A stretch of DNA of 64,000 bases from Escherichia phage phiWec190: sequence record LC739539.1. One strand, given 5' to 3'. A program made the position numbers and the translations under genes. Below are positions 35,848-53,748 of the stretch, in pieces. The notes under the pieces were generated by a model, which did no database searches, was not told the origin of the DNA, and saw nothing but the letters and a program-made list of their open reading frames with translations. Position 1 is the first letter of the stretch. The number at the start of each line of letters is the position of its first letter.

Positions 35848-35904
35848 TTGACGTTCGCCAGGTGGCGGCGTACTATTCATCACGTAGGGCGGCAATGGTG
35901 CTGC
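35848..35904 (+). promoter_or_regulatory. cassette promoter plus leader stem-loop (copy 1)
   Basis: TTGACG 35848-53, 17 nt, TACTAT 35871-76, leader CACGTAGGGCGGCAATGGTGCTGC (stem 35889-35904). Confidence 0.6.
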
Positions 35905-35925
35905 TCACTATCTGGAGTTAAGATC

Positions 35926-36123
35926 ATGGCAACATTGCACATAGTAGCGAAAGCAGGACAAATCAACGTAGTGGTAAACGGCTTTACTGAATTTAGTCAT
36001 CCTCAAGATGATCATGAAACGGTGCTATCTTTCATTGATTCCCTGTTAGAAATGGGAGTCATTACAGAAGACCAACACGCTACTAAATCCGAACGTGTCC
36101 GCCGTATCGCGGGTGAAGAATAA
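35926..36123 (+). CDS. small hypothetical protein (65 aa)
   Basis: Track ORF trimmed to first Met after leader; RBS GGAG. Confidence 0.5.
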   Translation: MATLHIVAKAGQINVVVNGFTEFSHPQDDHETVLSFIDSLLEMGVITEDQHATKSERVRRIAGEE

Positions 36124-36129
36124 AAAGTA

Positions 36130-36190
36130 TTGACAATACGCAACAACCTGATAAGATGTATCACGTAGAGCGGCGGAATGGTCCACCGCT
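36130..36190 (+). promoter_or_regulatory. cassette promoter plus leader stem-loop (copy 2)
   Basis: TTGACA 36130-35, 16 nt, TAAGAT, leader GTAGAGCGGCGGAATGGTCCACCGCTC. Confidence 0.6.
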
Positions 36191-36213
36191 CACAACTAAG
36201 AGAGATTATCATC

Positions 36214-36486
36214 ATGGCATCATATAGCGCAACAATGATCGTAACTGGCACCACTGGCAAACCTATGAGCGGTGGCGGATCTTTCGCTAACATCAATATT
36301 GACGGGCGCTTATCCCTGGACGCAGCGATCGCCGTAGCGCGGGAAACATTTAAGAAAGAATGTAATTTCAACAAGCAAGATTATTTAGGTTTCGCTATTG
36401 AAAAAACCGCGCGCTTTGTGGATTATAAAAGCCCGAAAATGGTTGATACTACATTAACAGCAAGACAAGTAAACTTTTTGCTGTAA
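36214..36486 (+). CDS. small hypothetical protein (90 aa)
   Basis: Track ORF trimmed to MASYSATM... after RBS AAGAGAGA. Confidence 0.5.
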   Translation: MASYSATMIVTGTTGKPMSGGGSFANINIDGRLSLDAAIAVARETFKKECNFNKQDYLGFAIEKTARFVDYKSPKMVDTTLTARQVNFLL

Positions 36487-36496
36487 GGGGGCTAAC

Positions 36497-36757
36497 GTGC
36501 ACTTTCTTAAGGTATGCGGGAAGATCATAGCCTTTCGTAATGAGGAATTTTATAACCTTGCTCGTTATGTTATGATCTACCCTGGCAAGGTATATAAAAA
36601 CAGTCCGACAAGTTACACTATTTACAATGTGCTATCAGGTAAAACCACGGAGATCATAAAAGGAGGGGTGAGAGATTATCGTACATCTTTCTATCCTTGC
36701 CGTGATTCCGCCAGCTTATTTTTTGTGTGTGAAATGATTGTTAAAAGGGGTGTATAA
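36497..36757 (+). CDS. hypothetical protein (86 aa, GTG start)
   Basis: ORF track; RBS AAGGGGG. Confidence 0.45.
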   Translation: MHFLKVCGKIIAFRNEEFYNLARYVMIYPGKVYKNSPTSYTIYNVLSGKTTEIIKGGVRDYRTSFYPCRDSASLFFVCEMIVKRGV

Positions 36758-37314
36758 TGGGGCGCGAATATGTGATCCAGTCCTGGGTAAAACATGACGT
36801 TAATGATCCGCGCATTATACCGGACGACATGATCGATCATGCTCCTGGCTATAGTGGCGAGCAAGTAGGCAACAGATCGGCGCGTAGTCATGGGAATACC
36901 AAAACACGCAGCGATCGCCCTGGTTGGCTGGCAAATGGTAACGCTGACATTGCAAGCGCCGCAGATGATAGCGACGGCGCGAAAGATAATCCGCTGTACA
37001 AGGTAGATCCGGCTTTTCGTGTCCTGGATGAATACCCCAGCAAGATAGCGGCGCTTGATGCCGCGCTCGAAAGTAAGCGCATCACCTGGACGGCGTACAG
37101 TACTGCAAAAAGCGTATTAGATGGTAAGCTGATCCAAGCTGAAAGGAAATTGGCCAAAATTGCAGCCATAGCCCAGGAGGAAGACCAGGAAGAGGAAGAC
37201 GATCACGCGGTTGAGTGCATCACCTTTGATCACTTCCTTCCAGTCTTTGAGGCATCACAAGAAGAGAAGAAAGAAGCCGAAAAAAATTATCTTTATTTTG
37301 ATGATTTAGGTTGA
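36757..37314 (+). CDS. hypothetical protein (185 aa) with acidic C-terminus
   Basis: ORF track; stop/start overlap with upstream gene. Confidence 0.5.
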   Translation: MGREYVIQSWVKHDVNDPRIIPDDMIDHAPGYSGEQVGNRSARSHGNTKTRSDRPGWLANGNADIASAADDSDGAKDNPLYKVDPAFRVLDEYPSKIAALDAALESKRITWTAYSTAKSVLDGKLIQAERKLAKIAAIAQEEDQEEEDDHAVECITFDHFLPVFEASQEEKKEAEKNYLYFDDLG

Positions 37315-37368
37315 CAGGTAAAACGTGATCACTTATAGTTAACTCATAGGGCGGCAACGGTGCCGCTC
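37311..37368 (+). promoter_or_regulatory. cassette promoter plus leader stem-loop (copy 3)
   Basis: TTGACA 37311-16, 17 nt, TATAGT 37334-39, leader CATAGGGCGGCAACGGTGCCGCTCACAAC. Confidence 0.6.
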
Positions 37369-37388
37369 ACAACCGAAAGGATAGAAAA

Positions 37389-37472
37389 ATGTTTACTACT
37401 TCCCTGTTTTTTGCAATCAATTTTATTCCTGGTTTCCGTGCTGCACTTGAAATCATTCTTTGGACACTGTAA
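37389..37472 (+). CDS. micro-ORF hydrophobic peptide (27 aa)
   Basis: Hand-read MFTTSLFFAINFIPGFRAALEIILWTL right after leader and RBS AAAGGA; not in track. Confidence 0.4.
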   Translation: MFTTSLFFAINFIPGFRAALEIILWTL

Positions 37473-37479
37473 GGAAAAC

Positions 37480-37590
37480 ATGATGATCAAGAAAGAAAAC
37501 AGTTTGACAGTTGGAACGATTAACGCTATTATCTTGGTTGTTCCATTTTGGATCACCGTAGCAGTTATCACAACAATCATTTTCAAGTAA
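37480..37590 (+). CDS. micro-ORF membrane peptide (36 aa)
   Basis: MMIKKENSLTVGTINAIILVVPFWITVAVITTIIFK; in-frame tail of track ORF 37360..37590, whose annotated start lies inside the stem-loop. Confidence 0.4.
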   Translation: MMIKKENSLTVGTINAIILVVPFWITVAVITTIIFK

Positions 37591-37600
37591 GGGGCACACC

Positions 37601-37792
37601 ATGTTTAAAAATATCACTGGCAACGTAGCAACATTGAAAGCAGGTGACAAGGTAGAATTGCACCGGATCACAATGACAGTAGCGCACATTGAAAAAGTGC
37701 CACCGCATCACCGCAAGATCTCGCTAACTTGCAACAAGGGGCGTAACATTACCGCCACATTGCACGAAAAAGATAACGTAGTCATTCTATAA
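37601..37792 (+). CDS. small hypothetical protein (63 aa)
   Basis: ORF track; RBS AAGGGG. Confidence 0.45.
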   Translation: MFKNITGNVATLKAGDKVELHRITMTVAHIEKVPPHHRKISLTCNKGRNITATLHEKDNVVIL

Positions 37793-37802
37793 GGCGGACA
37801 CT

Positions 37803-38084
37803 ATGAGCAAGGTAATTAGTCACGAAAAACTAAGCCCTACCCTATCGATCAGTGAATGCAACGATGGTTATTGGCTATACGATGAAACGCGCGGCATGAA
37901 TTTATCGATGCAAGCGAAAACCGAACAAGCGGCATATGTGCAAGCCCTGGAATATTACCAGCGACGACTACAGGAAGTTGAGAACAATTATAAAAGCCTG
38001 AAATCAAAGGTTGATCACTTTATCAGCCAGGCGGCAGATGACGACGATGATCACTATTGCGAGCGGTGCGGATCATACAGTTAA
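37803..38084 (+). CDS. small hypothetical protein (93 aa)
   Basis: ORF track; C-terminal CERCGS. Confidence 0.45.
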   Translation: MSKVISHEKLSPTLSISECNDGYWLYDETRGMNLSMQAKTEQAAYVQALEYYQRRLQEVENNYKSLKSKVDHFISQAADDDDDHYCERCGSYS

Positions 38085-38092
38085 AAATATCC

Positions 38093-38154
38093 TTGACAAC
38101 GTTTCAAAAAGTAGTAAGCTGTATCACATAGGGCGGCGGAATGGTCCACCGCTC
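38093..38154 (+). promoter_or_regulatory. cassette promoter plus leader stem-loop (copy 4)
   Basis: TTGACA 38093-98, TAAGCT, leader CACATAGGGCGGCGGAATGGTCCACCGCTC. Confidence 0.55.
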
Positions 38155-38174
38155 AAAACAGAAGAGAGAATATC

Positions 38175-38420
38175 ATGAAACACTTATCATCTATCACCAA
38201 TCACAATGAAATCTTTGTTAATGAAAAAGGTTACGCCTGGATTCAGTTAAAAGAGATGAAAAATAACCGTCGTGTAACGGTTGTTCGTAAAATTAAAAGC
38301 AAGCCTTTTAGTAACTTCTCGATTGATACCGTGCGGATCAAGAATGAAGAATACTTGATCGATAGCCAAATCACTTGGAGCTTAACGGCATCAGCCGCCG
38401 CACCATATTTCGCAAACTAA
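38175..38420 (+). CDS. small hypothetical protein (81 aa)
   Basis: ORF track. Confidence 0.5.
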   Translation: MKHLSSITNHNEIFVNEKGYAWIQLKEMKNNRRVTVVRKIKSKPFSNFSIDTVRIKNEEYLIDSQITWSLTASAAAPYFAN

Positions 38421-38431
38421 GAAAAAAACGT

Positions 38432-38488
38432 TTGACACTGTTTAAAATTCTGTTATAGTTTATCACGTAGGGCGGCAATGGTGCCGCC
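38432..38488 (+). promoter_or_regulatory. cassette promoter plus leader stem-loop (copy 5)
   Basis: TTGACA 38432-37, 16 nt, TATAGT, leader CACGTAGGGCGGCAATGGTGCCGCC. Confidence 0.6.
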
Positions 38489-38509
38489 AACAATAAAAAG
38501 GTTATCATC

Positions 38510-38689
38510 ATGGCTATCATTGCAAAAACTGAAATCGTGGGCTTAGATTCCATTCTTCTGACATATAAGGAAACGTTAGGAATGTATGTAGTAACCTATG
38601 GGGATTATGTGCATGAATACGAATATATTGATCTTGCTTTCGAATGTTACATTCGTCAGGTCAATCAAGCCTATAATGATTATCGTTAA
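38510..38689 (+). CDS. small hypothetical protein (59 aa, not in track)
   Basis: Hand-read MAIIAKTEIVGLDSILLTYKETLGMYVV... Confidence 0.4.
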   Translation: MAIIAKTEIVGLDSILLTYKETLGMYVVTYGDYVHEYEYIDLAFECYIRQVNQAYNDYR

Positions 38690-38708
38690 AAGTTTTAGTC
38701 TTGTGCTA

Positions 38709-38761
38709 TTGACAATAGGCGATAGTACAAGCATAATAACTTTTATCGGGAATACTTCCCA
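38709..38761 (+). promoter_or_regulatory. cassette promoter with variant leader hairpin (copy 6)
   Basis: TTGACA 38709-14, 17 nt, CATAAT 38732-37, hairpin GGGAA-TAC-TTCCC. Confidence 0.5.
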
Positions 38762-38786
38762 CTAACCAAAAAGAGAGAGTAAGAAC

Positions 38787-39152
38787 ATGGCTAAAAATAT
38801 CAATGTGTCCGCTTATGCTACCCTGGCTAACACTGCTAAAATCGAACTATCCAGCATTGAAGCAGTGCACATTAGCGCCCGTCGCTGGTTTCAACAGTCC
38901 TACGGTAATACATATTTTTCTTTAAGTGTGGACGTCGAGATCTGCGGTAAATTGATTGAAGTGGTTAACGTTCCGTTTCAATATGGCTATGGTGATCATT
39001 TTGATACCGTCGCCCTGGAAGAATTTAGCAAGGTTATCAACCTTGAAGGCAAAGAATTTTCACGCGGCAGCTATCTTTCCCGTTTTTGCCGTGACAATGG
39101 GATCGCTGTATACAGTCATGCAAGCGATGTTAAGCGTAAAAAAGATTTATAA
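38787..39152 (+). CDS. hypothetical protein (121 aa)
   Basis: ORF track. Confidence 0.5.
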   Translation: MAKNINVSAYATLANTAKIELSSIEAVHISARRWFQQSYGNTYFSLSVDVEICGKLIEVVNVPFQYGYGDHFDTVALEEFSKVINLEGKEFSRGSYLSRFCRDNGIAVYSHASDVKRKKDL

Positions 39153-39158
39153 AAGACG

Positions 39159-39220
39159 TTGACAGCACGAATAAAAAGAGTAAACTGTATTACATAGGGC
39201 GCGGGAATAGTTCCCGCCCC
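39159..39220 (+). promoter_or_regulatory. cassette promoter plus leader stem-loop (copy 7)
   Basis: TTGACA 39159-64, 16 nt, TAAACT, leader ACATAGGGCGCGGGAATAGTTCCCGCCCC. Confidence 0.6.
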
Positions 39221-39241
39221 ACTCAAAGAGAGATTAACATC

Positions 39242-39481
39242 ATGGCTAAATCAAAAATGTTCTTAGGTCACAAAAATAAAAATCATTGGAATGTAAGCCT
39301 TTGGATTAACAACGATGAATCATTGTATCGGTTGGCCCTGGACTTTATTAACGATAGCACTAATCGCAATGATGCGGCCCGTCATATGATGCTATTTTTA
39401 CAAGAGACTGGACAAGATAAGACTCCAGACGGTTTCAAATATAGCACTACTGCGATCCGCGCCGCGATGGTCGGAATGTAA
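39242..39481 (+). CDS. small hypothetical protein (79 aa)
   Basis: ORF track. Confidence 0.5.
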   Translation: MAKSKMFLGHKNKNHWNVSLWINNDESLYRLALDFINDSTNRNDAARHMMLFLQETGQDKTPDGFKYSTTAIRAAMVGM

Positions 39482-39490
39482 TAAAAACAG

Positions 39491-39548
39491 TTGACAACGT
39501 TTTAAATTAGTGTAAGATGTATCACATAGGGGCGACAAGCGCCCCGCC
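39491..39548 (+). promoter_or_regulatory. cassette promoter plus leader stem-loop (copy 8)
   Basis: TTGACA 39491-96, 16 nt, TAAGAT, leader CACATAGGGGCGACAAGCGCCCCGCC. Confidence 0.6.
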
Positions 39549-39568
39549 TAACAGAAGAGAGAAAAATC

Positions 39569-39796
39569 ATGGCTATCAATATTGTTCGCGTATCCGGCAC
39601 CGTTGGCACTTCCCAGGTTATAGCCGTTGTAACAAATAAAAAGATTAATGATGTATGTGAGATCTTGAATAAGTGGGCTATTGCTAATTTTGGGGAATAT
39701 GCGAGCGTTGAGTACATCGAATCTTATCAGGTGCCAACCATCAGCCTGACCGATCTCAACGTTGATCGCCTGTTATGCCTGGACGAATTAATCTGA
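39569..39796 (+). CDS. small hypothetical protein (75 aa)
   Basis: ORF track. Confidence 0.5.
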   Translation: MAINIVRVSGTVGTSQVIAVVTNKKINDVCEILNKWAIANFGEYASVEYIESYQVPTISLTDLNVDRLLCLDELI

Positions 39797-39805
39797 AAAA
39801 GATTG

Positions 39806-39862
39806 TTGACACGGGAAAGAAAAAGAGTAAACTGTATTACGTAGGGCGGCAATGGTGCCGCC
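39806..39862 (+). promoter_or_regulatory. cassette promoter plus leader stem-loop (copy 9)
   Basis: TTGACA 39806-11, 16 nt, TAAACT, leader ACGTAGGGCGGCAATGGTGCCGCC. Confidence 0.6.
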
Positions 39863-39881
39863 AGCAAGAAGAGAGATTATC

Positions 39882-40097
39882 ATGATGGCTAATATCCGCA
39901 CACTGTTAAAAAATGCAAGTCGAGTTTTATTTTCCGATCACGATTATTTCAATAAAGACATTACAGGCGTTAAGAACATCAAAGATGTAAAAAGTGTTAT
40001 GGGTATATATTGCAATGTGAAACGTGTTGGAACTTTTAGCAACAAGGTAGTATATCAGGCAGGGGATTACAATTTTACACTAACAATCTTAAATTAA
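39882..40097 (+). CDS. small hypothetical protein (71 aa)
   Basis: Track ORF trimmed to MMANIRT... after leader. Confidence 0.45.
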   Translation: MMANIRTLLKNASRVLFSDHDYFNKDITGVKNIKDVKSVMGIYCNVKRVGTFSNKVVYQAGDYNFTLTILN

Positions 40098-40100
40098 AGC

Positions 40101-40162
40101 TTGCAATCCCCATAAAATAAAGTAAACTGTATTACATCAAGGCGGCGGAATGGTCCACCGCC
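40101..40162 (+). promoter_or_regulatory. cassette promoter plus leader stem-loop (copy 10)
   Basis: TTGCAA 40101-06, 16 nt, TAAACT, leader ACATCAAGGCGGCGGAATGGTCCACCGCC. Confidence 0.55.
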
Positions 40163-40186
40163 TAACAAAGAGAAGAGGAAAACATC

Positions 40187-40354
40187 ATGATTACTTTTAC
40201 TACCCGTGAAGCCGCTCGCAACGTTGCACGTAAAGTTAACGCCGCCAACCTGGGCGCTACGCTTAAAGCCCCTGTAAAAGATACATCAGGCGCGTGGATC
40301 TTCCCTGGTCTGCGTCATGCTGATAACTTGGGCACGTTAAGCCGTAACAAATAA
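40187..40354 (+). CDS. small basic protein (55 aa, not in track)
   Basis: Hand-read MITFTTREAARNVARKVNAANLGATLKAPVKDTSGAWIFPGLRHADNLGTLSRNK. Confidence 0.4.
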   Translation: MITFTTREAARNVARKVNAANLGATLKAPVKDTSGAWIFPGLRHADNLGTLSRNK

Positions 40355-40368
40355 GGTTAGCCCTTCGT

Positions 40369-40396
40369 AATAGCGCCCCGCTCAATAGGCGCTATT
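40369..40396 (+). other. intercistronic 9-bp-stem hairpin
   Basis: AATAGCGCC-CCGCTCAATA-GGCGCTATT, immediately upstream of RBS for 40435. Confidence 0.45.
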
Positions 40397-40434
40397 GAGA
40401 AGAGAAACCACTTATCACAAAGAGAGAAAACATC

Positions 40435-40656
40435 ATGATCACTTTCGCTATTGTCGCCGTTGTCGCTGGTCAAGTTTACGTGAACGATACATTCACCACC
40501 GAAGACAAAGCAGCAGGAGATATCACCGCCGCTTATAACGAGTGCAAGGAAGTAGGAAGGATGTTAGCGCCTTGCTTCCTTATGAGTGAACGCCAGGACG
40601 GGATCACGGTGTTTACTAACATTGAAACAGGATATCAAATGATAGTAGAAAAATGA
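40435..40656 (+). CDS. small hypothetical protein (73 aa)
   Basis: ORF track. Confidence 0.45.
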   Translation: MITFAIVAVVAGQVYVNDTFTTEDKAAGDITAAYNECKEVGRMLAPCFLMSERQDGITVFTNIETGYQMIVEK

Positions 40657-40718
40657 TTGACAAGTTTTAAAAATCCGGTAAGATGTAACACGTAGGGCGG
40701 CAATGGTGCCGCTCACAA
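40656..40718 (+). promoter_or_regulatory. cassette promoter plus leader stem-loop (copy 11)
   Basis: TTGACA 40656-61, 16 nt, TAAGAT, leader ACACGTAGGGCGGCAATGGTGCCGCTCACAAC. Confidence 0.6.
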
Positions 40719-40733
40719 CAGAAGAGAGACACC

Positions 40734-41087
40734 ATGAAAGCACAAAATGCAATTAAACTTTATATTCTGGCCTCAATTGATTATAGCGAGTATAGCATCA
40801 CAGAAGAGAAAGAGAAGATCGCGGAATTGATGCGACGTTTTAAGAATGAGTACTGGTATCCCTATAACCAAGAATACTACAATCATAACGTTATCAGAGC
40901 AATAGCCTCATGGTTACAAGGTTTACCGTCAGATATCAATATCGCTTTCGAATATTGGGAAGTAGATCGGTTGTTAACATCCTGGGGATACATTAGCGAG
41001 CGTAGCAGCGAAAGCAAGATCCAGAAAGAAAGGGAAAACTATTGGCTATACCTTGCAGGAGTGATCCTTGCACTTTCCCACGAATAA
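40734..41087 (+). CDS. hypothetical protein (117 aa)
   Basis: ORF track. Confidence 0.5.
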   Translation: MKAQNAIKLYILASIDYSEYSITEEKEKIAELMRRFKNEYWYPYNQEYYNHNVIRAIASWLQGLPSDINIAFEYWEVDRLLTSWGYISERSSESKIQKERENYWLYLAGVILALSHE

Positions 41088-41103
41088 AAAGTTTTAAAAG
41101 TAG

Positions 41104-41165
41104 TTGACAGGCATCAAACAATAAAGTAAATTTAAACACGTAGGGCGGCAATGGTGCCGCTCACA
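41104..41165 (+). promoter_or_regulatory. cassette promoter plus leader stem-loop (copy 12)
   Basis: TTGACA 41104-09, TAAATT, leader ACACGTAGGGCGGCAATGGTGCCGCTCACAAC. Confidence 0.55.
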
Positions 41166-41183
41166 ACAAAAAGAGGAAACATC

Positions 41184-41330
41184 ATGAATACATCTAATCG
41201 CGCCGAAAAAATCCAATCTTCCAAAACTCGCGCAGCGTGGAATGAAGAAGTGGTCCGCAAGGGCGACAAGCGCAACAAGACTAAGCGCGACCGCACCGAT
41301 AAACGTGCATGGCTGGACCTGGAAGACTAA
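41184..41330 (+). CDS. small highly basic protein (48 aa, not in track)
   Basis: Hand-read MNTSNRAEKIQSSKTRAAWNEEVVRKGDKRNKTKRDRTDKRAWLDLED. Confidence 0.4.
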   Translation: MNTSNRAEKIQSSKTRAAWNEEVVRKGDKRNKTKRDRTDKRAWLDLED

Positions 41331-41338
41331 CAAAACAA

Positions 41339-41361
41339 GGGCGCAAATAGCGCCCTTTCTT
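41339..41361 (+). terminator. rho-independent terminator
   Basis: GGGCGC-AAATA-GCGCCC then TTTCTT. Confidence 0.6.
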
Positions 41362-41386
41362 ATATCTAACGAGAGGATAACAGCAC

Positions 41387-41572
41387 ATGACCTTAAACGA
41401 GATTAAAACCGCCTACAACGCAACGAACAAAGTAGCAGCCCGTTACCGCGACGAATACGGATTTATTGCGCAAGGCGTGATCCTGGGCTTATCTAATGAT
41501 GGTTTGATTTACATTGATGCTTATCATAACCAGGTTAAACCTGAAAATGTTATCAGTATAAAATATCTTTAA
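41387..41572 (+). CDS. small hypothetical protein (61 aa)
   Basis: ORF track; RBS GAGAGGA. Confidence 0.45.
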   Translation: MTLNEIKTAYNATNKVAARYRDEYGFIAQGVILGLSNDGLIYIDAYHNQVKPENVISIKYL

Positions 41573-41578
41573 AAGTGG

Positions 41579-42158: not shown

Positions 42159-42168
42159 GGTGCACACC

Positions 42169-42348
42169 ATGAAAACAGTAAACGTTATCAGATCATCAAA
42201 CATCATTAAAGAGATCGCCCTTGCCACTGGTATTGAGATCGAGGAAGTGATCGCGCTCAATCTTACAGAAAACGATCTGCGCAACTATGAAGCGGAAAGC
42301 GTGAAAGCAAGTGGCGCGGTCCTGGCATATAATCCGGCTAACAAATAG
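42169..42348 (+). CDS. small hypothetical protein (59 aa)
   Basis: In-frame tail of track ORF 42112..42348 from MKTVNV... Confidence 0.4.
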   Translation: MKTVNVIRSSNIIKEIALATGIEIEEVIALNLTENDLRNYEAESVKASGAVLAYNPANK

Positions 42349-42408
42349 TTTGACAAGCTGAATCAACCTGATAAGATGTATCACATAGGGGCGACAAGCG
42401 CCCCGCCT
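42349..42408 (+). promoter_or_regulatory. cassette promoter plus leader stem-loop (copy 15)
   Basis: TTGACA 42349-54, 17 nt, TAAGAT, leader CACATAGGGGCGACAAGCGCCCCGCC. Confidence 0.6.
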
Positions 42409-42428
42409 AACAGAAGAGAGAAAAAATC

Positions 42429-42707
42429 ATGACCATCGTTAAATTAACAACCGAAGAAATGAAAACAATGTTAACCACTAATTTACAAAATTGGAAAATT
42501 GGTGTTGACGTTGAAACAGTGTGCAAGTTGAACGACAAACTAACACCGGACGACATTGAAACGATCATCCGTGCAGATTTCTATGATGCTTTATACGATG
42601 ATTCCACAGTCCTTGAAACGATGTTGGATAACGCTTGGATCAATCCCGATTTGGCGGCTTATGGTCATCTTGCCTTTGAAGCCATCCATAATGTTTATAA
42701 TCGTTAA
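42429..42707 (+). CDS. hypothetical protein (92 aa)
   Basis: ORF track. Confidence 0.5.
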   Translation: MTIVKLTTEEMKTMLTTNLQNWKIGVDVETVCKLNDKLTPDDIETIIRADFYDALYDDSTVLETMLDNAWINPDLAAYGHLAFEAIHNVYNR

Positions 42708-42717
42708 GGGGGATAAC

Positions 42718-42849
42718 ATGAATCCGAAAGATATGCAAGCATGGAAAGGGTACGACGATCTAAGCGCCTTGCGCAATAAGTCAAGCCGTAACCTTAGACG
42801 GTTGGAAGCAAAGAAAAAGAAAAATATTAAGGGGGTGCACCATGTATAA
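42718..42849 (+). CDS. small basic protein (43 aa)
   Basis: In-frame tail of track ORF 42556..42849 from MNPKDMQAWKGY..., RBS AAGGGGG. Confidence 0.35.
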   Translation: MNPKDMQAWKGYDDLSALRNKSSRNLRRLEAKKKKNIKGVHHV

Positions 42850-43069
42850 CAATATCATTGCAGATCGTGCCGCTACTATTCGCCCAGGAGATCGGGCGCG
42901 TTTACAGGTTGGCGTTTATCCGTTCCCGTCTTATGACTTCTGCAAGGTAACGGCTATCGAAAACAATCCGTTTGATCCTGACACCGTGATCATCTGGTAC
43001 GAAGGAAGGGGAAACAGATATGAAGATATCTTGGGGCGTGATGAATCCGTAAACATTTTACGCTATTAA
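42842..43069 (+). CDS. small hypothetical protein (75 aa)
   Basis: ORF track. Confidence 0.45.
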   Translation: MYNNIIADRAATIRPGDRARLQVGVYPFPSYDFCKVTAIENNPFDPDTVIIWYEGRGNRYEDILGRDESVNILRY

Positions 43070-43202
43070 CAGCCTGTAAGCTGTACGGCTGTATTACAGC
43101 CTAAAAGGTGTAAGGCAATGCAATCCCCTACCTGATTTAATTAGTGCGCCCTGGCTTATACTGGGGCGTTATACATTGTAGAAAATAATTTTAAAAATAT
43201 GC

Positions 43203-43263
43203 TTGACGCCTGGAACGTTGGCGCGTATAGTTTATCACATAGGGCGGCGGAATGGTCCACCGC
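43203..43263 (+). promoter_or_regulatory. cassette promoter plus leader stem-loop (copy 16)
   Basis: TTGACG 43203-08, 17 nt, TATAGT, leader CACATAGGGCGGCGGAATGGTCCACCGC. Confidence 0.6.
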
Positions 43264-43283
43264 AAAACAGAAGAGAAAACATC

Positions 43284-43469
43284 ATGACTACTTACAAGAA
43301 AACGAAAGAATTGGTAAAAGGCGATCTGGTTAGAAATATCCTGAATGGTAAGTTTTATGCAATGGTATCTATTGAACGTTATCAAACTGGTTACATTGTT
43401 AAACTTGATAGTCGTGACGATGGTTGCGAGTTTTACACTGAATATAATGATCGTCACATAGTCAAATAA
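43284..43469 (+). CDS. small hypothetical protein (61 aa)
   Basis: Track ORF trimmed to MTTYKKT... Confidence 0.45.
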   Translation: MTTYKKTKELVKGDLVRNILNGKFYAMVSIERYQTGYIVKLDSRDDGCEFYTEYNDRHIVK

Positions 43470-43480
43470 ACCATAAACCA

Positions 43481-43497
43481 GGGGCGACAAGCGCCCC
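43481..43497 (+). other. intercistronic hairpin GGGGCG-ACAAG-CGCCCC
   Basis: Same hairpin as in leaders of copies 8 and 15, here without a promoter. Confidence 0.45.
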
Positions 43498-43517
43498 ATA
43501 ACAAGAAAGGTAACAAG

Positions 43518-43700
43518 ATGAAAAAGATTGATTCTTCCCGTGTATTGTGTGAAATTGATGTTATCATCGGCAACGGCACCGGACACCATAAACTGATTAA
43601 GGGTAAGGCTTATCGCCTGGCAACGCTCAAAGCAGATATGCGCCTAACAGCAAGCCAGATCAAAAAGTTTTTTCGCCCCTTGTTGACAACAGCAAAGTAA
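43518..43700 (+). CDS. small basic protein (60 aa)
   Basis: ORF track. Confidence 0.45.
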   Translation: MKKIDSSRVLCEIDVIIGNGTGHHKLIKGKAYRLATLKADMRLTASQIKKFFRPLLTTAK

Positions 43701-43740
43701 GCGCGTAGTATTCATCTTGTAGGGCGGCAATGGTGCCGCC
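43683..43740 (+). promoter_or_regulatory. cassette promoter plus leader stem-loop (copy 17)
   Basis: TTGACA 43683-88 (inside 3' end of previous gene), 17 nt, TAGTAT, leader TTGTAGGGCGGCAATGGTGCCGCC. Confidence 0.55.
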
Positions 43741-43758
43741 GATGGTGAGGGTAATATA

Positions 43759-43896
43759 ATGAAAACTTTCAATGCAACAGCCTCGACAATTGGTTATATT
43801 ATTACAGTGCAAGCCGTGGACCTGGTAGCAGCAGCAAACAAGATTAAAAGAATGATCCCGCCAGGTAGTGAATTTTCCGTTTGGGAAGTAAAATAA
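43759..43896 (+). CDS. small hypothetical protein (45 aa, not in track)
   Basis: Hand-read MKTFNATASTIGYIITVQAVDLVAAANKIKRMIPPGSEFSVWEVK. Confidence 0.4.
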   Translation: MKTFNATASTIGYIITVQAVDLVAAANKIKRMIPPGSEFSVWEVK

Positions 43897-43898
43897 AT

Positions 43899-43961
43899 CT
43901 TGACAGTATTTTGTTTTCTGGTAAAGTGTATCACGTAGGGCGGGGCAATAAGGCAACGCCC
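43899..43961 (+). promoter_or_regulatory. cassette promoter plus leader stem-loop (copy 18)
   Basis: TTGACA 43899-904, 16 nt, TAAAGT, leader CACGTAGGGCGGGGCAATAAGGCAACGCCC. Confidence 0.55.
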
Positions 43962-43979
43962 ATTAAAGAGGGTAGCATC

Positions 43980-44084
43980 ATGTTAGAGAAAATTTTCACG
44001 GTTGCAATAGTTGGCCTGGCGTTATCGGTTGGAGTGGTTGCAACTATGGCTAATATGATCCTATCTTCTCACGGTATCGGTTAA
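43980..44084 (+). CDS. micro-ORF membrane peptide (34 aa)
   Basis: In-frame tail of track ORF 43881..44084: MLEKIFTVAIVGLALSVGVVATMANMILSSHGIG. Confidence 0.4.
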   Translation: MLEKIFTVAIVGLALSVGVVATMANMILSSHGIG

Positions 44085-44094
44085 GGTGAAACAA

Positions 44095-44310
44095 ATGTTC
44101 ACGAACAAAGCAGGCAAAACGGAATTTTTACGCGGCTTACAAGTTGGTAAGCCTGAGATCTGGCATTGCAGCAAGTCCGCACATAACGAAATGAAAGACT
44201 TTACCGCATCGTTGCAACGTGTTAAAATAACTATCACGCAGAAAAAAGCCCTGATAGTGGCAGAAAACGAGATCCCACAGACCATTATCATAATTGAGCG
44301 CACATCATAA
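44095..44310 (+). CDS. small hypothetical protein (71 aa)
   Basis: Track ORF 44086..44310; ATG at 44095 has AAGGTG RBS. Confidence 0.45.
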   Translation: MFTNKAGKTEFLRGLQVGKPEIWHCSKSAHNEMKDFTASLQRVKITITQKKALIVAENEIPQTIIIIERTS

Positions 44311-44325
44311 TTTTATTTATATTGA

Positions 44326-44387
44326 ATAAATAGTATTGACACAGATCACCAGTGTGATAATATTTACCACGTAGGGCGGCAATGGTG
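44326..44387 (+). promoter_or_regulatory. cassette promoter plus leader stem-loop (copy 19)
   Basis: TTGACA 44326-31, 16 nt, TAATAT, leader ACCACGTAGGGCGGCAATGGTGCCGCTCACC. Confidence 0.6.
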
Positions 44388-44412
44388 CCGCTCACCATTT
44401 GGAGTTATAACC

Positions 44413-44814
44413 ATGAACATTACGATCCTTTCTTATACTGACGTTGTTAACATTGCTAAAACTTTCGGCGCTGAAGCCCTGAAATATGCGGTTTCCAATG
44501 GTAATCTGACAAAGGAACAATGCTACCTGATTGGAGGCTGTAAACGTTGGGCGGTGTCTCGCAACATTGAGATCGAAAACGTCAACGATGGCAACACTGA
44601 ATATAGTGTTGATGCCGTTTTCCAGTCGGTTGATTTAGGCGGGATCTATAACACTAATCTGAATGATGTGCGTATCGTTCGCACTGGTTTCGGTGCTTAT
44701 GATGTACCAGTCCGCGAAGCTATGGAGAAAGGTTATATTAATCCGACCATTTTAAATATGATCATGACTGAGACTAAACAGCGTAACGATGCACGGGCTA
44801 TCTTGGGCCTGTAA
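44413..44814 (+). CDS. hypothetical protein (133 aa)
   Basis: ORF track. Confidence 0.5.
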   Translation: MNITILSYTDVVNIAKTFGAEALKYAVSNGNLTKEQCYLIGGCKRWAVSRNIEIENVNDGNTEYSVDAVFQSVDLGGIYNTNLNDVRIVRTGFGAYDVPVREAMEKGYINPTILNMIMTETKQRNDARAILGL

Positions 44815-44834
44815 GTAAAAACTCCAAAAAACTA

Positions 44835-44896
44835 TTGACACGGATCGTCAATATGATAATATTTACCACGTAGGGCGGGAATAGTTCCCGCTTCCT
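44835..44896 (+). promoter_or_regulatory. cassette promoter plus leader stem-loop (copy 20; near-duplicate of copy 19)
   Basis: TTGACA 44835-40, 16 nt, TAATAT, leader ACCACGTAGGGCGGGAATAGTTCCCGC. Confidence 0.6.
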
Positions 44897-44914
44897 GGAA
44901 AAAGGTAAAACATC

Positions 44915-45160
44915 ATGTACCAGACAACTAAAATTGGCAATATCTACCACGACCCGAAAAATTCGCGCGGTATGGCTTGGATCAAAATGCCTAACAACAT
45001 TTGGTATTATGCGTTAAAAGGGAATACTTTGATGGGTAATCGTTGGACCTGGATCAAAGAGAATAACAACATTATCAACGATGAAAAAATCAGCGAAATG
45101 GTAGCAACAGGTAAGGTTGTAAAGGAAGAAAACACCGATCGCGTAACGCGTCAATTCTAA
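44915..45160 (+). CDS. small hypothetical protein (81 aa)
   Basis: ORF track. Confidence 0.5.
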   Translation: MYQTTKIGNIYHDPKNSRGMAWIKMPNNIWYYALKGNTLMGNRWTWIKENNNIINDEKISEMVATGKVVKEENTDRVTRQF

Positions 45161-45163
45161 AAA

Positions 45164-45178
45164 GGGCGGCAACGCCCC
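45164..45178 (+). other. intercistronic hairpin with GCAA tetraloop
   Basis: GGGCG-GCAA-CGCCC between stop of 44915..45160 and RBS of 45200. Confidence 0.45.
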
Positions 45179-45199
45179 ACTATCAGAAAGGAAAAGATT

Positions 45200-45424
45200 A
45201 TGAGTATTGTTAGAATGTTACAAGCTATTAAACTGGCTGAATTGTCGGATCTCAAGGTAGAAATAACTGAATATGATTATGGGGATCTAAGCGTGCATAT
45301 CTTCCCGCTTCCAGTTGATGGCGCTTATGCCTGGTGCTATGCTGATAACTTCCCGCCGGATGACACAAAGGGCGTAACTGACTTTATTTTAAAGTCGATA
45401 GTAGAAAACAGCCAACGTAATTAA
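45200..45424 (+). CDS. small hypothetical protein (74 aa)
   Basis: ORF track. Confidence 0.45.
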   Translation: MSIVRMLQAIKLAELSDLKVEITEYDYGDLSVHIFPLPVDGAYAWCYADNFPPDDTKGVTDFILKSIVENSQRN

Positions 45425-45429
45425 TCAGC

Positions 45430-45445
45430 GGGGCGGCAACGCCCC
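45430..45445 (+). other. intercistronic hairpin with GCAA tetraloop
   Basis: GGGGCG-GCAA-CGCCCC upstream of 45476. Confidence 0.45.
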
Positions 45446-45475
45446 ATTAAACGCAATAGGAAGAGGATAGACAAC

Positions 45476-45766
45476 ATGAAAAAGATGATCGCAGTAGTTG
45501 CCCTGGTTGTTGGTATTAACGCGCCTGTAATGGCTAACGATTTGCCTGAATCGATCACGTTAACCGATATCAACGCAGTAAACCGGATCGGGGTTAATTA
45601 TCGCCTATGCCTTGCCGCTAAAACTTTTAAGGACGGGGAAACAGAATACCACGGATTCGAGGGTGTCCGGTGCGGTGAGCTTGCACGCGACCTTAAGGAA
45701 GATCCAGACCTTGAGGCCATACCGATGACCGTAAACGGTAAAGCTTACGTAAACCGCCAACAATGA
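45476..45766 (+). CDS. secreted/periplasmic protein (96 aa)
   Basis: Signal peptide MKKMIAVVALVVGINAPVMA. Confidence 0.5.
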   Translation: MKKMIAVVALVVGINAPVMANDLPESITLTDINAVNRIGVNYRLCLAAKTFKDGETEYHGFEGVRCGELARDLKEDPDLEAIPMTVNGKAYVNRQQ

Positions 45767-45777
45767 GAAAGGTAATC

Positions 45778-45897
45778 ATGACAATGGGGATCATAGTAGC
45801 AACGCTGGCGCTAATCCCCTTCCTGGTTAAATATGTGCTAATCGGTGTTGTTCTGGTAGTCAGTGACCTATTGGAAACGGTTGGCACCTGGTTTTAA
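45778..45897 (+). CDS. micro-ORF membrane peptide (39 aa, not in track)
   Basis: Hand-read MTMGIIVATLALIPFLVKYVLIGVVLVVSDLLETVGTWF. Confidence 0.4.
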   Translation: MTMGIIVATLALIPFLVKYVLIGVVLVVSDLLETVGTWF

Positions 45898-45909
45898 GGA
45901 GTAATAAAA

Positions 45910-46101
45910 ATGAATGCAGAACAAGTTAGAAAGGTATTAGCAGCGTTGCGTTATCACAACCATAGCAAGGTAAAGAATGATCCTGATTATGTGGATTCAA
46001 GCCTGGAAGAAGACACATTGCAAGCTATAAGCCATATGCAGGAATTGCTTAAGCGTATGACAGAGAAGAACAGATCTGATTATATAGGTGACGAAGTATA
46101 A
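45910..46101 (+). CDS. small hypothetical protein (63 aa)
   Basis: ORF track. Confidence 0.45.
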   Translation: MNAEQVRKVLAALRYHNHSKVKNDPDYVDSSLEEDTLQAISHMQELLKRMTEKNRSDYIGDEV

Positions 46102-46105
46102 AATA

Positions 46106-46168
46106 GCTTGCATGATGTGCCGGATAGTGTAAGATGTATTTCGTAGGGCGGCAATGGTGCCGCTCACA
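46106..46168 (+). promoter_or_regulatory. cassette promoter plus leader stem-loop (copy 21)
   Basis: TTGCAT 46106-11, 16 nt, TAAGAT, leader TCGTAGGGCGGCAATGGTGCCGCTCACAAC. Confidence 0.6.
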
Positions 46169-46186
46169 ACTGGAAGGAAAAACACC

Positions 46187-46390
46187 ATGACTACAGCTAA
46201 CCGCCTGATCGCCGTCCTGAATAAAGCAAAGGCTAACCGCCTGGATGTTCAAATCAAAGAGCAAGCAAATGGCGAGATCCTTGCTACGGTGTCCGATGGC
46301 GGTTATGTATCGGAATCATTTTTATCAGGGAGCTTAGATCATCTTGTTTGGAAATTAGAAATTATCGTGGAGGATATGCAGATCATCTAA
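46187..46390 (+). CDS. small hypothetical protein (67 aa)
   Basis: Track ORF trimmed to MTTANRL... Confidence 0.45.
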   Translation: MTTANRLIAVLNKAKANRLDVQIKEQANGEILATVSDGGYVSESFLSGSLDHLVWKLEIIVEDMQII

Positions 46391-46400
46391 TCTTTACAAA

Positions 46401-46430
46401 ACAGGGCTTGTTTTTGTCCTGTTTTTTGTT
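46401..46430 (+). terminator. rho-independent terminator
   Basis: ACAGGG-CTTGTTTTTG-TCCTGT then TTTTTT. Confidence 0.55.
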
Positions 46431-46564
46431 ATGCTTATTGAACGGGCGGCACTGGCAACGGGGGAGGTAATCACCGGACGACCCCGCTATATATTGATAG
46501 CTAACACCTATCAAACAACAAAACATCAAAGAGATAAACTATCAAATCTTTACAATTCTACCTA

Positions 46565-46623
46565 TTGACACCGGATCACGCTTATATTATTATTTATCAC
46601 GTAGGGCGGGAATGTTTCCCGTC
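46565..46623 (+). promoter_or_regulatory. cassette promoter plus leader stem-loop (copy 22)
   Basis: TTGACA 46565-70, about 17 nt, TATTAT, leader CACGTAGGGCGGGAATGTTTCCCG. Confidence 0.55.
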
Positions 46624-46641
46624 TAATATAGGAATAACACC

Positions 46642-46875
46642 ATGATCGGACAAATTAAAAGCACTAAATCGAACGTTAACGGCAATGTTTCACACTTTAT
46701 CGGTGATAATGAGAGAGGTACACCCTACGCCGCCGTAACCGTTCAACCTGACGGGGATTATTGGTTTACCGTTTATGGATCTTATTCCTTTGGACGTCCG
46801 GCGCATGATAAGATCTTGCAAGCGGTTAAGCCTACAGGGAAGAATATCACAGCAGAAAAATTTTATAAAAAATAG
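46642..46875 (+). CDS. small hypothetical protein (77 aa)
   Basis: ORF track. Confidence 0.5.
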   Translation: MIGQIKSTKSNVNGNVSHFIGDNERGTPYAAVTVQPDGDYWFTVYGSYSFGRPAHDKILQAVKPTGKNITAEKFYKK

Positions 46876-46936
46876 CTTGCTTTATACACCCTGTTAACTT
46901 ATAGTTATTGCGTAGGGCGAGCAATACAGCAAGCCC
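46876..46936 (+). promoter_or_regulatory. cassette promoter plus leader stem-loop (copy 23)
   Basis: TTGCTT 46876-81, 17 nt, TATAGT, leader GCGTAGGGCGAGCAATACAGCAAGCCC. Confidence 0.5.
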
Positions 46937-46953
46937 ACAAAGAGGAAAAGAAG

Positions 46954-47322
46954 ATGAGCAAATCAGCAATTAAAGCAGTTGAAAAAGCGCAAGAAGTGAT
47001 CGCAACGTCCACCACTGGCGCAAAGGTTGATCTCGTTGGTTATCTGAAAGATGAAACTATCCGTAAAAATTGGCGCAACGCTGATCTACTGGCTTGCTTA
47101 TTGATTAATAGTGTCGCTGATGCTTTCCAGTGTGAAACAGCCGAGAGCCTGGAGGCAAACTTGTTCGACAATATGGATCAAGCCATTGAAACCTATATTC
47201 AATCAAATTTAGATAGCTGGAACAATAAAACATGGCCTGACAGCTTACGCGATACAACTGATCAACTGATCCGCCTTGCCTTGATGGTTGAACGCGATAA
47301 CGTTTACAACCGCACAAAGTAA
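46954..47322 (+). CDS. hypothetical protein (122 aa)
   Basis: ORF track. Confidence 0.5.
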   Translation: MSKSAIKAVEKAQEVIATSTTGAKVDLVGYLKDETIRKNWRNADLLACLLINSVADAFQCETAESLEANLFDNMDQAIETYIQSNLDSWNNKTWPDSLRDTTDQLIRLALMVERDNVYNRTK

Positions 47323-47333
47323 GATTGTACAAG

Positions 47334-47353
47334 GGCGCACTAAGCGCCCTTTA
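47334..47353 (+). terminator. terminator-like hairpin
   Basis: GGGCGC-ACTAA-GCGCCC then TTTAA. Confidence 0.45.
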
Positions 47354-47387
47354 ACGTAAAGAAATGTAAATAATGCGCTATCCCCTA

Positions 47388-47416
47388 TTGACAGGGGATC
47401 GGCGTTATATTATATT
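47388..47416 (+). promoter_or_regulatory. sigma70-like promoter (no leader stem-loop); -35 inside palindrome CCCCT-ATTGAC-AGGGG
   Basis: TTGACA 47388-93, TATATT about 47411-16. Confidence 0.45.
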
Positions 47417-47461
47417 TAACTCACTGGCAGCAAACAACGAAACGAAACAAAGGACAACACC

Positions 47462-47881
47462 ATGAACATTAAATCAAATAATCCAGCTTACTCCTTCGAC
47501 AACGCTTTTTGTCACGGTAGCGCCGCTAAAGGCTTCGAAATTGATGGTAAACTGGTTATCGTGAACGTTGACGGGGAAGAGGTTGCAGTATATCCGGTGG
47601 CAGACGTTAAAAGCCGTTTACAATGCCGCATGGATGTTACCGCGTATCAGCTTGATCCGATCCGTGTAGTTGCCCTGGTCCTGGAAGAAGAGATCAAAGC
47701 AATGCATCATAGCAATAAGTTTATTGGTGACGCGCAGGACAATATGAAAGTATGCCGCAGTAAAGTTAACGAAGCATTGAAAGAATGCGGTTTTAAGGAT
47801 CTGATGATTAAACGTGATGAAAAATTCCGCTTTCGTAATGACCTGGCGAACCGGATATACTCAATCTATGAAGCTTTATAA
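47462..47881 (+). CDS. hypothetical protein (139 aa), last gene of array
   Basis: ORF track. Confidence 0.5.
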   Translation: MNIKSNNPAYSFDNAFCHGSAAKGFEIDGKLVIVNVDGEEVAVYPVADVKSRLQCRMDVTAYQLDPIRVVALVLEEEIKAMHHSNKFIGDAQDNMKVCRSKVNEALKECGFKDLMIKRDEKFRFRNDLANRIYSIYEAL

Positions 47882-47896
47882 TCGACAACAAAACAA

Positions 47897-47924
47897 GGGG
47901 CGCACTAAGCGCCCTTTCTTTTTG
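47897..47924 (+). terminator. strong rho-independent terminator closing the array
   Basis: GGGGCGC-ACTAA-GCGCCC then TTTCTTTTTG. Confidence 0.7.
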
Positions 47925-53747: not shown

Positions 53748-53748
53748 T

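Follow-up and report, generated by a model that had tools for sequence, protein, structure and literature searches.

The closest described counterparts of the element reported here are the promoter-early stem-loops (PeSLs) of T4-type phages (Arbiol et al. 2010, PMC2839356; Comeau et al. 2014, PMC4122927). In a PeSL, a strong sigma70-type promoter preceded by an AT-rich tract is coupled with a GC stem-loop and a Shine-Dalgarno/ATG. PeSLs occur as many repeats within a variable region rich in small ORFans, and leave chimeric elements behind where indels between close relatives have crossed over inside them. The same properties are found in an array at positions 35848-47924 (plus strand) of a 64,000-nucleotide stretch of Escherichia phage phiWec190 (LC739539.1; the whole analysed stretch is referred to as the window), which holds 41 co-oriented small genes of 27-185 aa and 23 promoter-leader units of about 95 bp, characterized by a GC hairpin in the leader. 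A resemblance to PeSLs was proposed in the original prediction for this locus, and it is borne out by the presence of all components, by three indel crossovers inside elements and by an enrichment of homology breakpoints. However, the PeSL stem-loop varies among five positions, none of them downstream of the transcription start (-35/-10, AT tract, just before +1) and termination of upstream transcription has been shown for it, whereas the array hairpin occupies one fixed position in the leader, covaries as RNA and has no terminator features. PeSL hosts are also T4-type phages (Straboviridae), whereas this phage belongs to the Stephanstirmvirinae and has unit-bearing relatives in the Vequintavirinae. 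Given the fixed in-leader hairpin, its non-terminator appearance and the unrelated lineage, we regard the array as PeSL-like in behaviour but as a distinct variant rather than a member of that class.

In E. coli, the 5'-terminal stem-loops of ompA and papA stabilise mRNA (Emory, Bouvet and Belasco 1992, cited via the review PMC3997798, its references 92-95). Like the array leader, they place a stable hairpin a few nt from the 5' end (here the predicted one), followed by an accessible ribosome site, and they are modular, just as the array leader would suit heterologous messages. They differ in belonging to single cellular genes with demonstrated half-life effects, whereas the array presents one hairpin family, known from sequence, on ~23 unrelated phage genes. 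Integron arrays are similar in that small, unrelated, co-oriented cassettes with hairpin repeats vary in content while orientation is kept. Integron cassettes are promoter-less, however, and owe their mobility to an integrase that works on attC sites folded from single strands, whereas here each cassette has a promoter, there is no integrase, and the crossover point varies within the element as in homologous recombination. The strong early promoters of T5/T4-type coliphages, with an UP element and consensus hexamers, share an A-tract, a perfect TTGACA, dependence on the host polymerase and clustering in the early region with the array units, but to our knowledge no conserved leader hairpin follows them. 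In the record of the congeneric phage phAPEC8 (JX561091, 2012), the sigma70 part is annotated as 'host dependent promoter (MEME)' and the hairpin 20-mer GTAGGGCGGCAATGGTGCCG as 'promoter determined with PHIRE'. These are the same two adjacent blocks as in the array unit, read as two kinds of promoter, while hairpin, covariation, placement within the leader and cassette exchange are not described there. The repeat was thus noticed already in 2012 but read differently, and the literature searched contained no description of this leader hairpin or of cassette exchange.

Anatomy and covariation of the promoter-leader unit

The window classifies as Phapecoctavirus and is 99.7-100% identical to phiWec188 (LC739537), a 149.8-kb phage of this genus (Stephanstirmvirinae, phAPEC8/phi92 group). 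For window 35800-48000, phiWec188 is the best relative (99.7% identity over 93% of the length), and the relatives that follow cover 45-71% of this region at 86-90% identity. The annotation of relatives identifies DNA polymerase I and a primase/helicase among the replication genes in window 1-12201, in agreement with the PolA/gp4-type replication originally proposed.

Units were counted with a strict motif, ATCACRTAGGGCGG, allowing up to 2 mismatches. Nineteen plus-strand copies lie between 35879 and 46609 and one copy lies on the minus strand (16710), against 0.35 expected by chance; 0/100 shuffles reached 20. Together with four degenerate units, 5' of the genes starting at 38787, 40187, 42039 and 46954, the array contains 23 units, matching the number and the shared grammar first read from the DNA. 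On its 5' side the unit consists of an A-rich tract (0.9-1.1 bits at -38 to -36, 5' of the -35 box), TTGACA, a 16-17 nt spacer, a -10 box of the TAAGAT/TAAACT/TATAGT type and 2 nt before the motif. On its 3' side follow the leader ATCAC(G/A)TAGGGCGG, a GC hairpin (dG -11 to -19 kcal/mol), a purine-rich ribosome binding site (RBS) and an ATG located 45-54 nt after the motif start. The combination of TTGACA, 16-17 nt spacer and TAnnnT -10 box is present in 20 of the 23 units, the remainder being degenerate.

The leader is confined to the array. A covariance model of the leader identified 17 significant copies in the window, all on the plus strand inside the array, and in the complete 150-kb phiWec188 genome all matches (17/17) fell into the array on one strand. 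This search of the full phiWec188 genome and of relatives, which the original prediction had called for, yielded 115 co-oriented unit copies across the window and seven relatives, with 68 distinct leaders and 44 hairpin alleles. The sole unit copy outside the array in the window is a variant at 16753 on the minus strand (unit 16676-16758), which forms the promoter of a TerC-family gene (15701-16675, minus strand). This gene, annotated terC in phiWec188, encodes a 324-aa membrane protein, and with its unit (15701-16758, minus strand) it is apparently an auxiliary gene recruited to the array's expression module.

The 44 hairpin alleles have the stem base GGGCGG/CCGCYC in common, while the loop and the distal stem vary, the latter among CA/UG, GAA/UUC, CGGA/UCCA, GGGGA/UCCCC and GGGGCG/CGCCCC. 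When 3' arms were exchanged among alleles, the mean folding energy was -10.2 kcal/mol for the chimeric hairpins vs -14.3 kcal/mol for the native ones, and none of 2000 permutations equalled the native value. In the model alignment, pairing holds for 90% of cells, both sides have changed in 31 cells, and 0/500 shuffles reached the observed covariation, which supports the leader hairpin as a conserved RNA structure. The arm-swap and covariation results, along with divergent leaders of unchanged geometry, indicate that structure rather than sequence is maintained.

The position of the hairpin is equally constant. The start of its GC stem is 9-11 nt downstream of the -10 hexamer, including in sequence-divergent units and in Vequintavirus (GGGGCAAAAGUGCCC), and this fixed distance of ~10 nt places the hairpin inside the transcribed leader. 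Initiation by E. coli RNA polymerase normally falls on a purine that follows a pyrimidine, 6-9 nt downstream of the -10 box. Applied to the conserved CAC-R-TAG, this rule predicts +1 at R, 8 nt after the -10 box, so that the hairpin would lie 3-4 nt from the transcript 5' end and, counted from this predicted start, extend to about +27. About one copy in three has G-U-A...(U)-C-A-C pairing that prolongs the helix to the predicted +1. When sites were selected by promoter only, 105 of 124 array promoters from seven phages were followed by a hairpin of -9 kcal/mol or stronger in the first 45 nt, compared with 10 of 65 promoter-like sites elsewhere in phiWec188, and the hairpin is therefore not a product of ascertainment bias. 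It also persists in about 20 of 22 leaders folded together with their own coding starts, with a mean unpaired probability of 0.65 for the RBS. A shared post-transcriptional function of the hairpin, as suggested in the original prediction, is thus consistent with covariation and with a constant site near the predicted 5' end, as far as tests on sequence reach.

No T-tract follows the leader hairpin, which is succeeded by CACAAC or AACAG, and a terminator scan called 0 leader hairpins while finding three separate canonical terminators in the array. The leader hairpin is therefore not an intrinsic terminator by sequence. Two further readings of the leader were discarded. Antitermination of the boxA/nut type via GCUCACAAC, 3' of the hairpin, was dropped as the U-run that typifies boxA is missing and only a subset of units carries the sequence; a CsrA site (GGA in the loop) was dropped as GGA is not consistently in the loop. 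Separately, the exact 21-mer GTAGGGCGGCAATGGTGCCGC was found in three mutually related IMG/VR contigs (36-61 kb, 58% GC) that are unrelated to phiWec188. There, the TAG of the 21-mer is the stop codon of a 781-aa ORF, with the hairpin after the ORF and no sigma70 promoter before it, and its occurrence in these contigs is probably due to chance or convergence.

The array extends exactly from the first -35 box at 35848 to its terminal terminator, as originally delimited. Unit 1 (35848-35928) carries TTGACG/TACTAT as its -35/-10 hexamers, a hairpin at 35884-35909 and its ATG at 35926, and is followed by unit 2 (36130-36216; TTGACA/TAAGAT; ATG 36214) with a long hairpin at 36168-36193 (GAGCGGCGGAATGGTCCACCGCTC). 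Unit 3 (37311-37391; TTGACA/TATAGT; hairpin 37349-37369; ATG 37389), unit 4 (38093-38177; TTGACA/TAAGCT; hairpin 38131-38154; ATG 38175) and unit 5 (38432-38512; TTGACA/TATAGT; hairpin 38471-38491; ATG 38510) precede the divergent leader of unit 6 (38709-38789; TTGACA/CATAAT; ATG 38787), whose hairpin GGGAATACTTCCC (38748-38761) keeps the usual distance from the -10 box. Next come unit 7 (39159-39244; TTGACA/TAAACT; hairpin 39197-39221, GGGCGCGGGAATAGTTCCCGCCCC; ATG 39242), unit 8 (39491-39571; TTGACA/TAAGAT; hairpin GGGGCGACAAGCGCCCC, 39529-39546; ATG 39569) and unit 9 (39806-39884; TTGACA/TAAACT; hairpin 39845-39865; ATG 39882). The -35 box is degenerate (TTGCAA) in unit 10 (40101-40189; hairpin 40140-40163; ATG 40187), whereas unit 11 (40657-40736; TTGACA/TAAGAT; hairpin 40692-40717; ATG 40734) has a helix reaching up to the predicted +1. 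Unit 12 (41104-41186; TTGACA/TAAATT; hairpin 41140-41165; ATG 41184) is followed, after the chimeric unit 13 described below, by the degenerate unit 14 (41959-42041; TTGCAA/TATATT; ATG 42039) with a truncated hairpin at 41998-42016. Units 15-18 are partners in the indels described below. The last units are 19 (44336-44415; TTGACA/TAATAT; hairpin 44374-44394; ATG 44413), 20 (44835-44917; TTGACA/TAATAT; hairpin GGGCGGGAATAGTTCCCGC, 44873-44893; ATG 44915), 21 (46108-46189; -35 TTGCAT; hairpin 46143-46168; ATG 46187), 22 (46565-46644; TTGACA/TATTAT; hairpin 46604-46625; ATG 46642) and 23 (46877-46956; ATG 46954), the latter with a degenerate -35 box (TTGCTT) and the leader TTGCGTAGGGCGAGCAATACAGCAAGCCC.

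Two sigma70-type promoters in the array, at 37504-37532 and, for the last gene (47462-47881), at 47388-47416, are leaderless; the proposed hairpin at the 5' end of every transcript would apply to the 23 units but not to these two. Conversely, three hairpins of the leader family are promoter-less and intergenic, each between a stop codon and the next RBS: GGGGCGACAAGCGCCCC at 43481-43497 (5' of gene 43518), GGGCGGCAACGCCCC at approximately 45168-45182 (within 45160-45199, 5' of gene 45200) and GGGGCGGCAACGCCCC at approximately 45436-45451 (within 45425-45475, 5' of gene 45476). The three intrinsic terminators lie at 41337-41357 (bidirectional), at 46398-46425 and at 47895-47924, where AAGGGGCGCACTAAGCGCCCTTT and a T run close the array. 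These occasional terminators and the translationally coupled genes downstream of some units had both been anticipated, while the ORF range given at that time (27-139 aa) had too low an upper limit, missing the 185-aa second gene of one unit. Stems in the classic PeSL geometry, flanking the -10 box or in the spacer, were seen at window 35441-35469 (minus strand), at window 40340-40434 and at ~7230 in phage Schickermooser.

In deposited annotations, the AUG in the hairpin loop (AAUGG) serves as a start codon, as at window 36178, 39852, 41625 and 46154 and at coding sequence starts in phiWec188. The true starts likely lie 30-36 nt further 3', after the purine-rich RBS, and several deposited proteins are thus probably 10-12 residues too long. 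The loop AUG as a genuine start was rejected, as it is in frame with the main ORF in only five AAUGG-loop units, which is consistent with chance.

Unrelated cargo and exchange of cassettes

None of the 41 cargo proteins resembles another, which rules out that the cassettes arose by gene duplication and means that the same regulatory unit is attached to unrelated ORFans. Each of the ten largest belongs to a different PHROG family of unknown function, and Pfam gave a single match among them, to DUF1033. A MITE-like selfish element was likewise ruled out by the strict co-orientation of the units and their constant distance to the start codon.

Comparison with relatives located three crossovers inside units. 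Within the array, phiWec188 differs from the window by one indel, an 853-bp cassette (42381-43233) that it lacks and that comprises the genes 42429-42707 and 42842-43069 and the next promoter. The left partner is unit 15 (42350-42431; TTGACA/TAAGAT; hairpin 42388-42405; ATG 42429) and the right partner unit 16 (43203-43286; TTGACG/TATAGT; hairpin 43244-43263; ATG 43284). The phiWec188 junction is chimeric: the former contributes promoter and hairpin, the latter RBS, ATG and gene, and the crossover lies inside the shared AACAGAAGAGA, in the RBS tract and not in the core. Phage phiWec179 lacks a 208-bp single-gene cassette (43728-43934), consisting of a 45-aa gene (43759-43896) and the next promoter. 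Here, the promoter and ATCTTGTAGGGCGG of unit 17 (43683-43761; TTGACA/TAGTAT; hairpin 43723-43741; ATG 43759), the left partner, are joined to the hairpin, RBS and gene of unit 18 (43900-43982; TTGACA/TAAAGT; hairpin GGGCGGGGCAATAAGGCAACGCCC; ATG 43980), with the crossover inside GTAGGGCGG. In the third case the window itself bears the recombination scar: unit 13 (41579-41657) matches two consecutive elements of relatives, the first in its promoter and the second in its hairpin, RBS and gene, being chimeric relative to Schickermooser and others, which have one extra gene between the two units. The crossover again falls in the 9-nt core GTAGGGCGG, as for phiWec179.

Breakpoints of homology across seven relatives are concentrated in the same elements, as 19 of 41 lie within units that cover 18% of the array (binomial p=3e-5). 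Relatives retain between 17 and 39 of the 41 array genes, some slots hold alleles that are merely 47-48% identical, and only one record covers at least 80% of the array compared with 67 for the replication module. Gene order is conserved, without inversion within the genus and with two genes transposed in phi92, so that the changes represent gain and loss and not shuffling as in PeSLs. Alignment of related arrays, proposed originally as a check for gain, loss or reordering at element boundaries, thus revealed gain, loss and replacement with crossovers in the elements, but no reordering within the genus. Exchange has evidently crossed genera and subfamilies, as shared array DNA is ~89% identical in relatives whose core replication genes are ~77% identical, and as the Vequintavirus phages slur16 and FV3 possess these units too, with entire cassettes in common at 80-88% identity.

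Interpretation of the leader hairpin

We favour, with a probability of about 0.58, a reading in which the unit is a portable immediate-early expression module with a 5' hairpin for mRNA protection or insulation and with repeats that secondarily serve recombination. Host sigma70 RNA polymerase would initiate strongly at the UP-like A-tract, consensus -35 box and imperfect TAAGAT-type -10 box, and the first 25-30 nt of each mRNA would fold into the GC hairpin, 0-4 nt from the 5' end. In the manner of ompA and papA, this hairpin could hinder attack by RppH and 5'-end-dependent RNase E and, as an autonomous domain, would keep the following A/purine-rich RBS open for any attached gene. Small unrelated ORFans, putatively for host takeover or anti-defence, would in this way be expressed at once, uniformly and at high level. 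With ~23 co-oriented copies of 30-90 bp similarity, the units are also proposed to recombine by homology, inside one genome as well as between genomes that co-infect a cell, and this may add, delete or replace cassettes while each surviving gene retains a complete promoter-leader.

Several observations weigh against the module. The literature searched contained no transcriptomics for Phapecoctavirus, Justusliebigvirus or Vequintavirus, and the start site and early timing are accordingly predictions; a start at the A located 6 nt after the -10 box would leave 5 nt unpaired and weaken protection from 5'-end-dependent decay. Other promoters of this phage are without the hairpin. An RNase E stimulator, Srd, is known from T4 and has a homologue in phage rV5 (PMC3606486), but tblastn against the window and phiWec188 returned no Srd homologue (best E=5.6) that would have offered an obvious reason for self-protection. 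Regarding recombination, any mosaic phage should show breakpoints at gene borders, and the neighbouring region 50000-62200, whose about 40 small genes are tightly coupled, with few promoters and none of the units, is equally patchy (42-44% coverage in relatives). The units are therefore crossover sites but not needed for plasticity, which in 50000-62200 must rest on something other than these elements. Finally, ATCAC(G/A)TAGGGCGG and the AAU(G/A)G loop are conserved beyond structural need, which hints at sequence-specific recognition.

This last point leads to a possible but distinctly less favoured explanation, in which the leader (5' single-stranded RUA, GGGCGG stem base, AAU(G/A)G loop) is a recognition tag bound by one trans-acting phage or host factor. 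Such a factor, be it an RNA-binding protein, a nuclease or a small RNA, would switch the ~23 early transcripts jointly, for example from early to middle expression, in a manner similar to T4 RegA/RegB but specific for the hairpin. Leader positions 0-13 carry 1.0-2.1 bits each, at least as much as the -10 hexamer and far above the promoter spacer (about 0.1-0.4 bits), a pattern that holds under promoter-only selection; an AAU loop start is common to most of the 44 alleles, and the element is limited to one regulon-like array and the terC gene. However, the conservation could stem from promoter-proximal constraints (discriminator, initial transcribed region) or from common descent, and divergent leaders (units 38709, 39491 and 42350; Vequintavirus GGGGCAAAAGTGCCC) keep the geometry but not the sequence, which fits a structural role better. 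No candidate binding protein was identified, and no complementary motif that might act as an antisense regulator occurs elsewhere in the window, the lone minus-strand copy being the terC unit. Strict PeSL function, where the stem-loop terminates or attenuates transcription of the upstream cassette or protects the 3' end of the upstream mRNA and so insulates cassettes, is improbable. It draws on the T4-type stem-loop, which lowered lacZ read-through about as well as rrnB T1 (PMC2839356), on the lack of any other terminator in most cassettes, on the promoter-less family hairpins straight after stop codons (43481, ~45170 and ~45440) and on the stems flanking the -10 box or spacer at Schickermooser ~7230 and window 35469 (minus strand). 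Against this, the leader hairpins have neither T-tract nor scan call beside three canonical terminators, and their position is fixed to the unit's own -10 box, which an upstream terminator would not require and which differs from the five variable PeSL positions. The hairpin also lies 3' of the next promoter and is thus part of that promoter's own transcript.

An element acting at the DNA level, whether a dimeric repressor binds it as an operator just 3' of the start site or a nuclease or recombinase recognises it as a cruciform or an attC-like recombination hotspot, appears very improbable. The hairpin is also a DNA palindrome at the position of a roadblock operator, and two of the three resolved crossovers fall into the same 9-nt core, GTAGGGCGG, but its arms covary and the outer half-site distance varies from about 8 to 14 nt, which is hard to fit to a single dimer. 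Furthermore, the third crossover took place in the RBS tract, which is expected of homologous but not of site-specific exchange, the array has no integrase or recombinase gene next to it, and with 20-28 nt the hairpins are far below the size of attC sites, which are much longer. We give next to no weight to the conserved 20-mer being itself a phage-specific promoter, as GTAGGGCGGCAATGGTGCCG-type 20-mers are annotated in the phAPEC8 record. PHIRE detects over-represented 20-mers, and this one is over-represented; yet it has a near-consensus sigma70 promoter at a constant 7 nt on its 5' side and the RBS at 25-30 nt on its 3' side, and its halves covary as a helix. In addition, a study of rV5 detected no homologues of gp33, gp45 and gp55, the T4 proteins of late transcription, and its authors suggested that the host RNA polymerase is perhaps left unmodified (PMC3606486).

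Genomic setting and implications

For phage Schickermooser, a terminal repeat of 328 bp has been reported (PMC6563267). By homology, the ends of its record correspond to window 48839 and 49168, within a 1.5-kb AT-rich gene-free gap 3' of the array, which makes the array the final ~13 kb before the physical genome end, with transcription pointing at that end. A 19-bp palindrome, AATGAKAATNATTMTCATT, clusters in both non-coding flanks of the array (seven sites in 35012-35210 and four in 48130-49116), with 11 matches vs 0.33 expected, and the rest of the 64 kb contains no match. The sequence is similar to the Fur box of E. coli, GATAATGATAATCATTATC, the best match (49095-49113) having 2 mismatches, and these palindromes could serve Fur titration or iron control, or be operators, origin iterons or packaging signals. 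The 5' flank (34558-35848) is a gene-poor divergent control region with direct repeats of 58 and 82 nt, and it also holds a strong minus-strand promoter (35469) with a G/C-rich leader and an 87-aa gene of unknown function (35472-35735, minus strand). PHROG scans of ten genes near the divergent promoters at 29.4 kb and 5' of the array revealed no regulator. Across the 64-kb window, Rfam reported 0 families at gathering score; the hits that appear up to E=1, an L2 leader of alphaproteobacteria and one miRNA, are at chance level. A tRNA/tmRNA scan found none.

A 1461-bp 'endonuclease' gene is present between the ATPase gene and the next gene in Schickermooser (1-775) and nieznany (315-1775), and absent from the window (~33431-33477) and phiWec188; it is probably a mobile homing-endonuclease insertion. 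Among the database matches, about 20 'Campylobacter phage' records of ~141-146 kb (e.g. MG065639, MG065656 and MG065674) are similar to this coliphage in array and core and have the look of Stephanstirmvirinae/Vequintavirinae genomes, which renders the host label doubtful. The record OR584014, 'Pseudomonas phage PsgM04F', is 92-96% identical across the array, replication and early regions, a surprisingly close relationship given the other host genus stated.

The position of the array near a genome end bears on a more speculative idea, which we consider unlikely: that the leader, beyond passive stabilisation, is a 5' 'address tag' by which ~23 immediate-early mRNAs are treated jointly by a dedicated factor, coupled to the direction of DNA entry. 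Such treatment could spare these mRNAs selectively during the destruction of host mRNA, or silence them all at once when early expression gives way to middle expression. If the array-side genome end (within about 1 kb) enters first, a promoter per gene would let each cassette fire upon entry. If both were true, these ideas would amount to a post-transcriptional regulon defined by a 5' hairpin and coupled to the direction of DNA entry, and we know of no such arrangement described in a phage.

The PeSL idea that regulatory repeats are both drivers of expression and seams of exchange of small accessory genes extends beyond T4-type phages to two further subfamilies, Stephanstirmvirinae and Vequintavirinae, which are large coliphages used in phage therapy collections. 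This suggests that 'plug-and-play' early-gene cassettes have arisen by convergent evolution. Motifs annotated as phage promoters in GenBank gain a new interpretation, and several probably mis-called start codons are explained. As a compact and apparently context-independent combination of strong promoter, 5' hairpin and open RBS, the unit would be a ready-made natural expression part, and the 41 ORFans that it accompanies are prime candidates for host-takeover or anti-defence functions.

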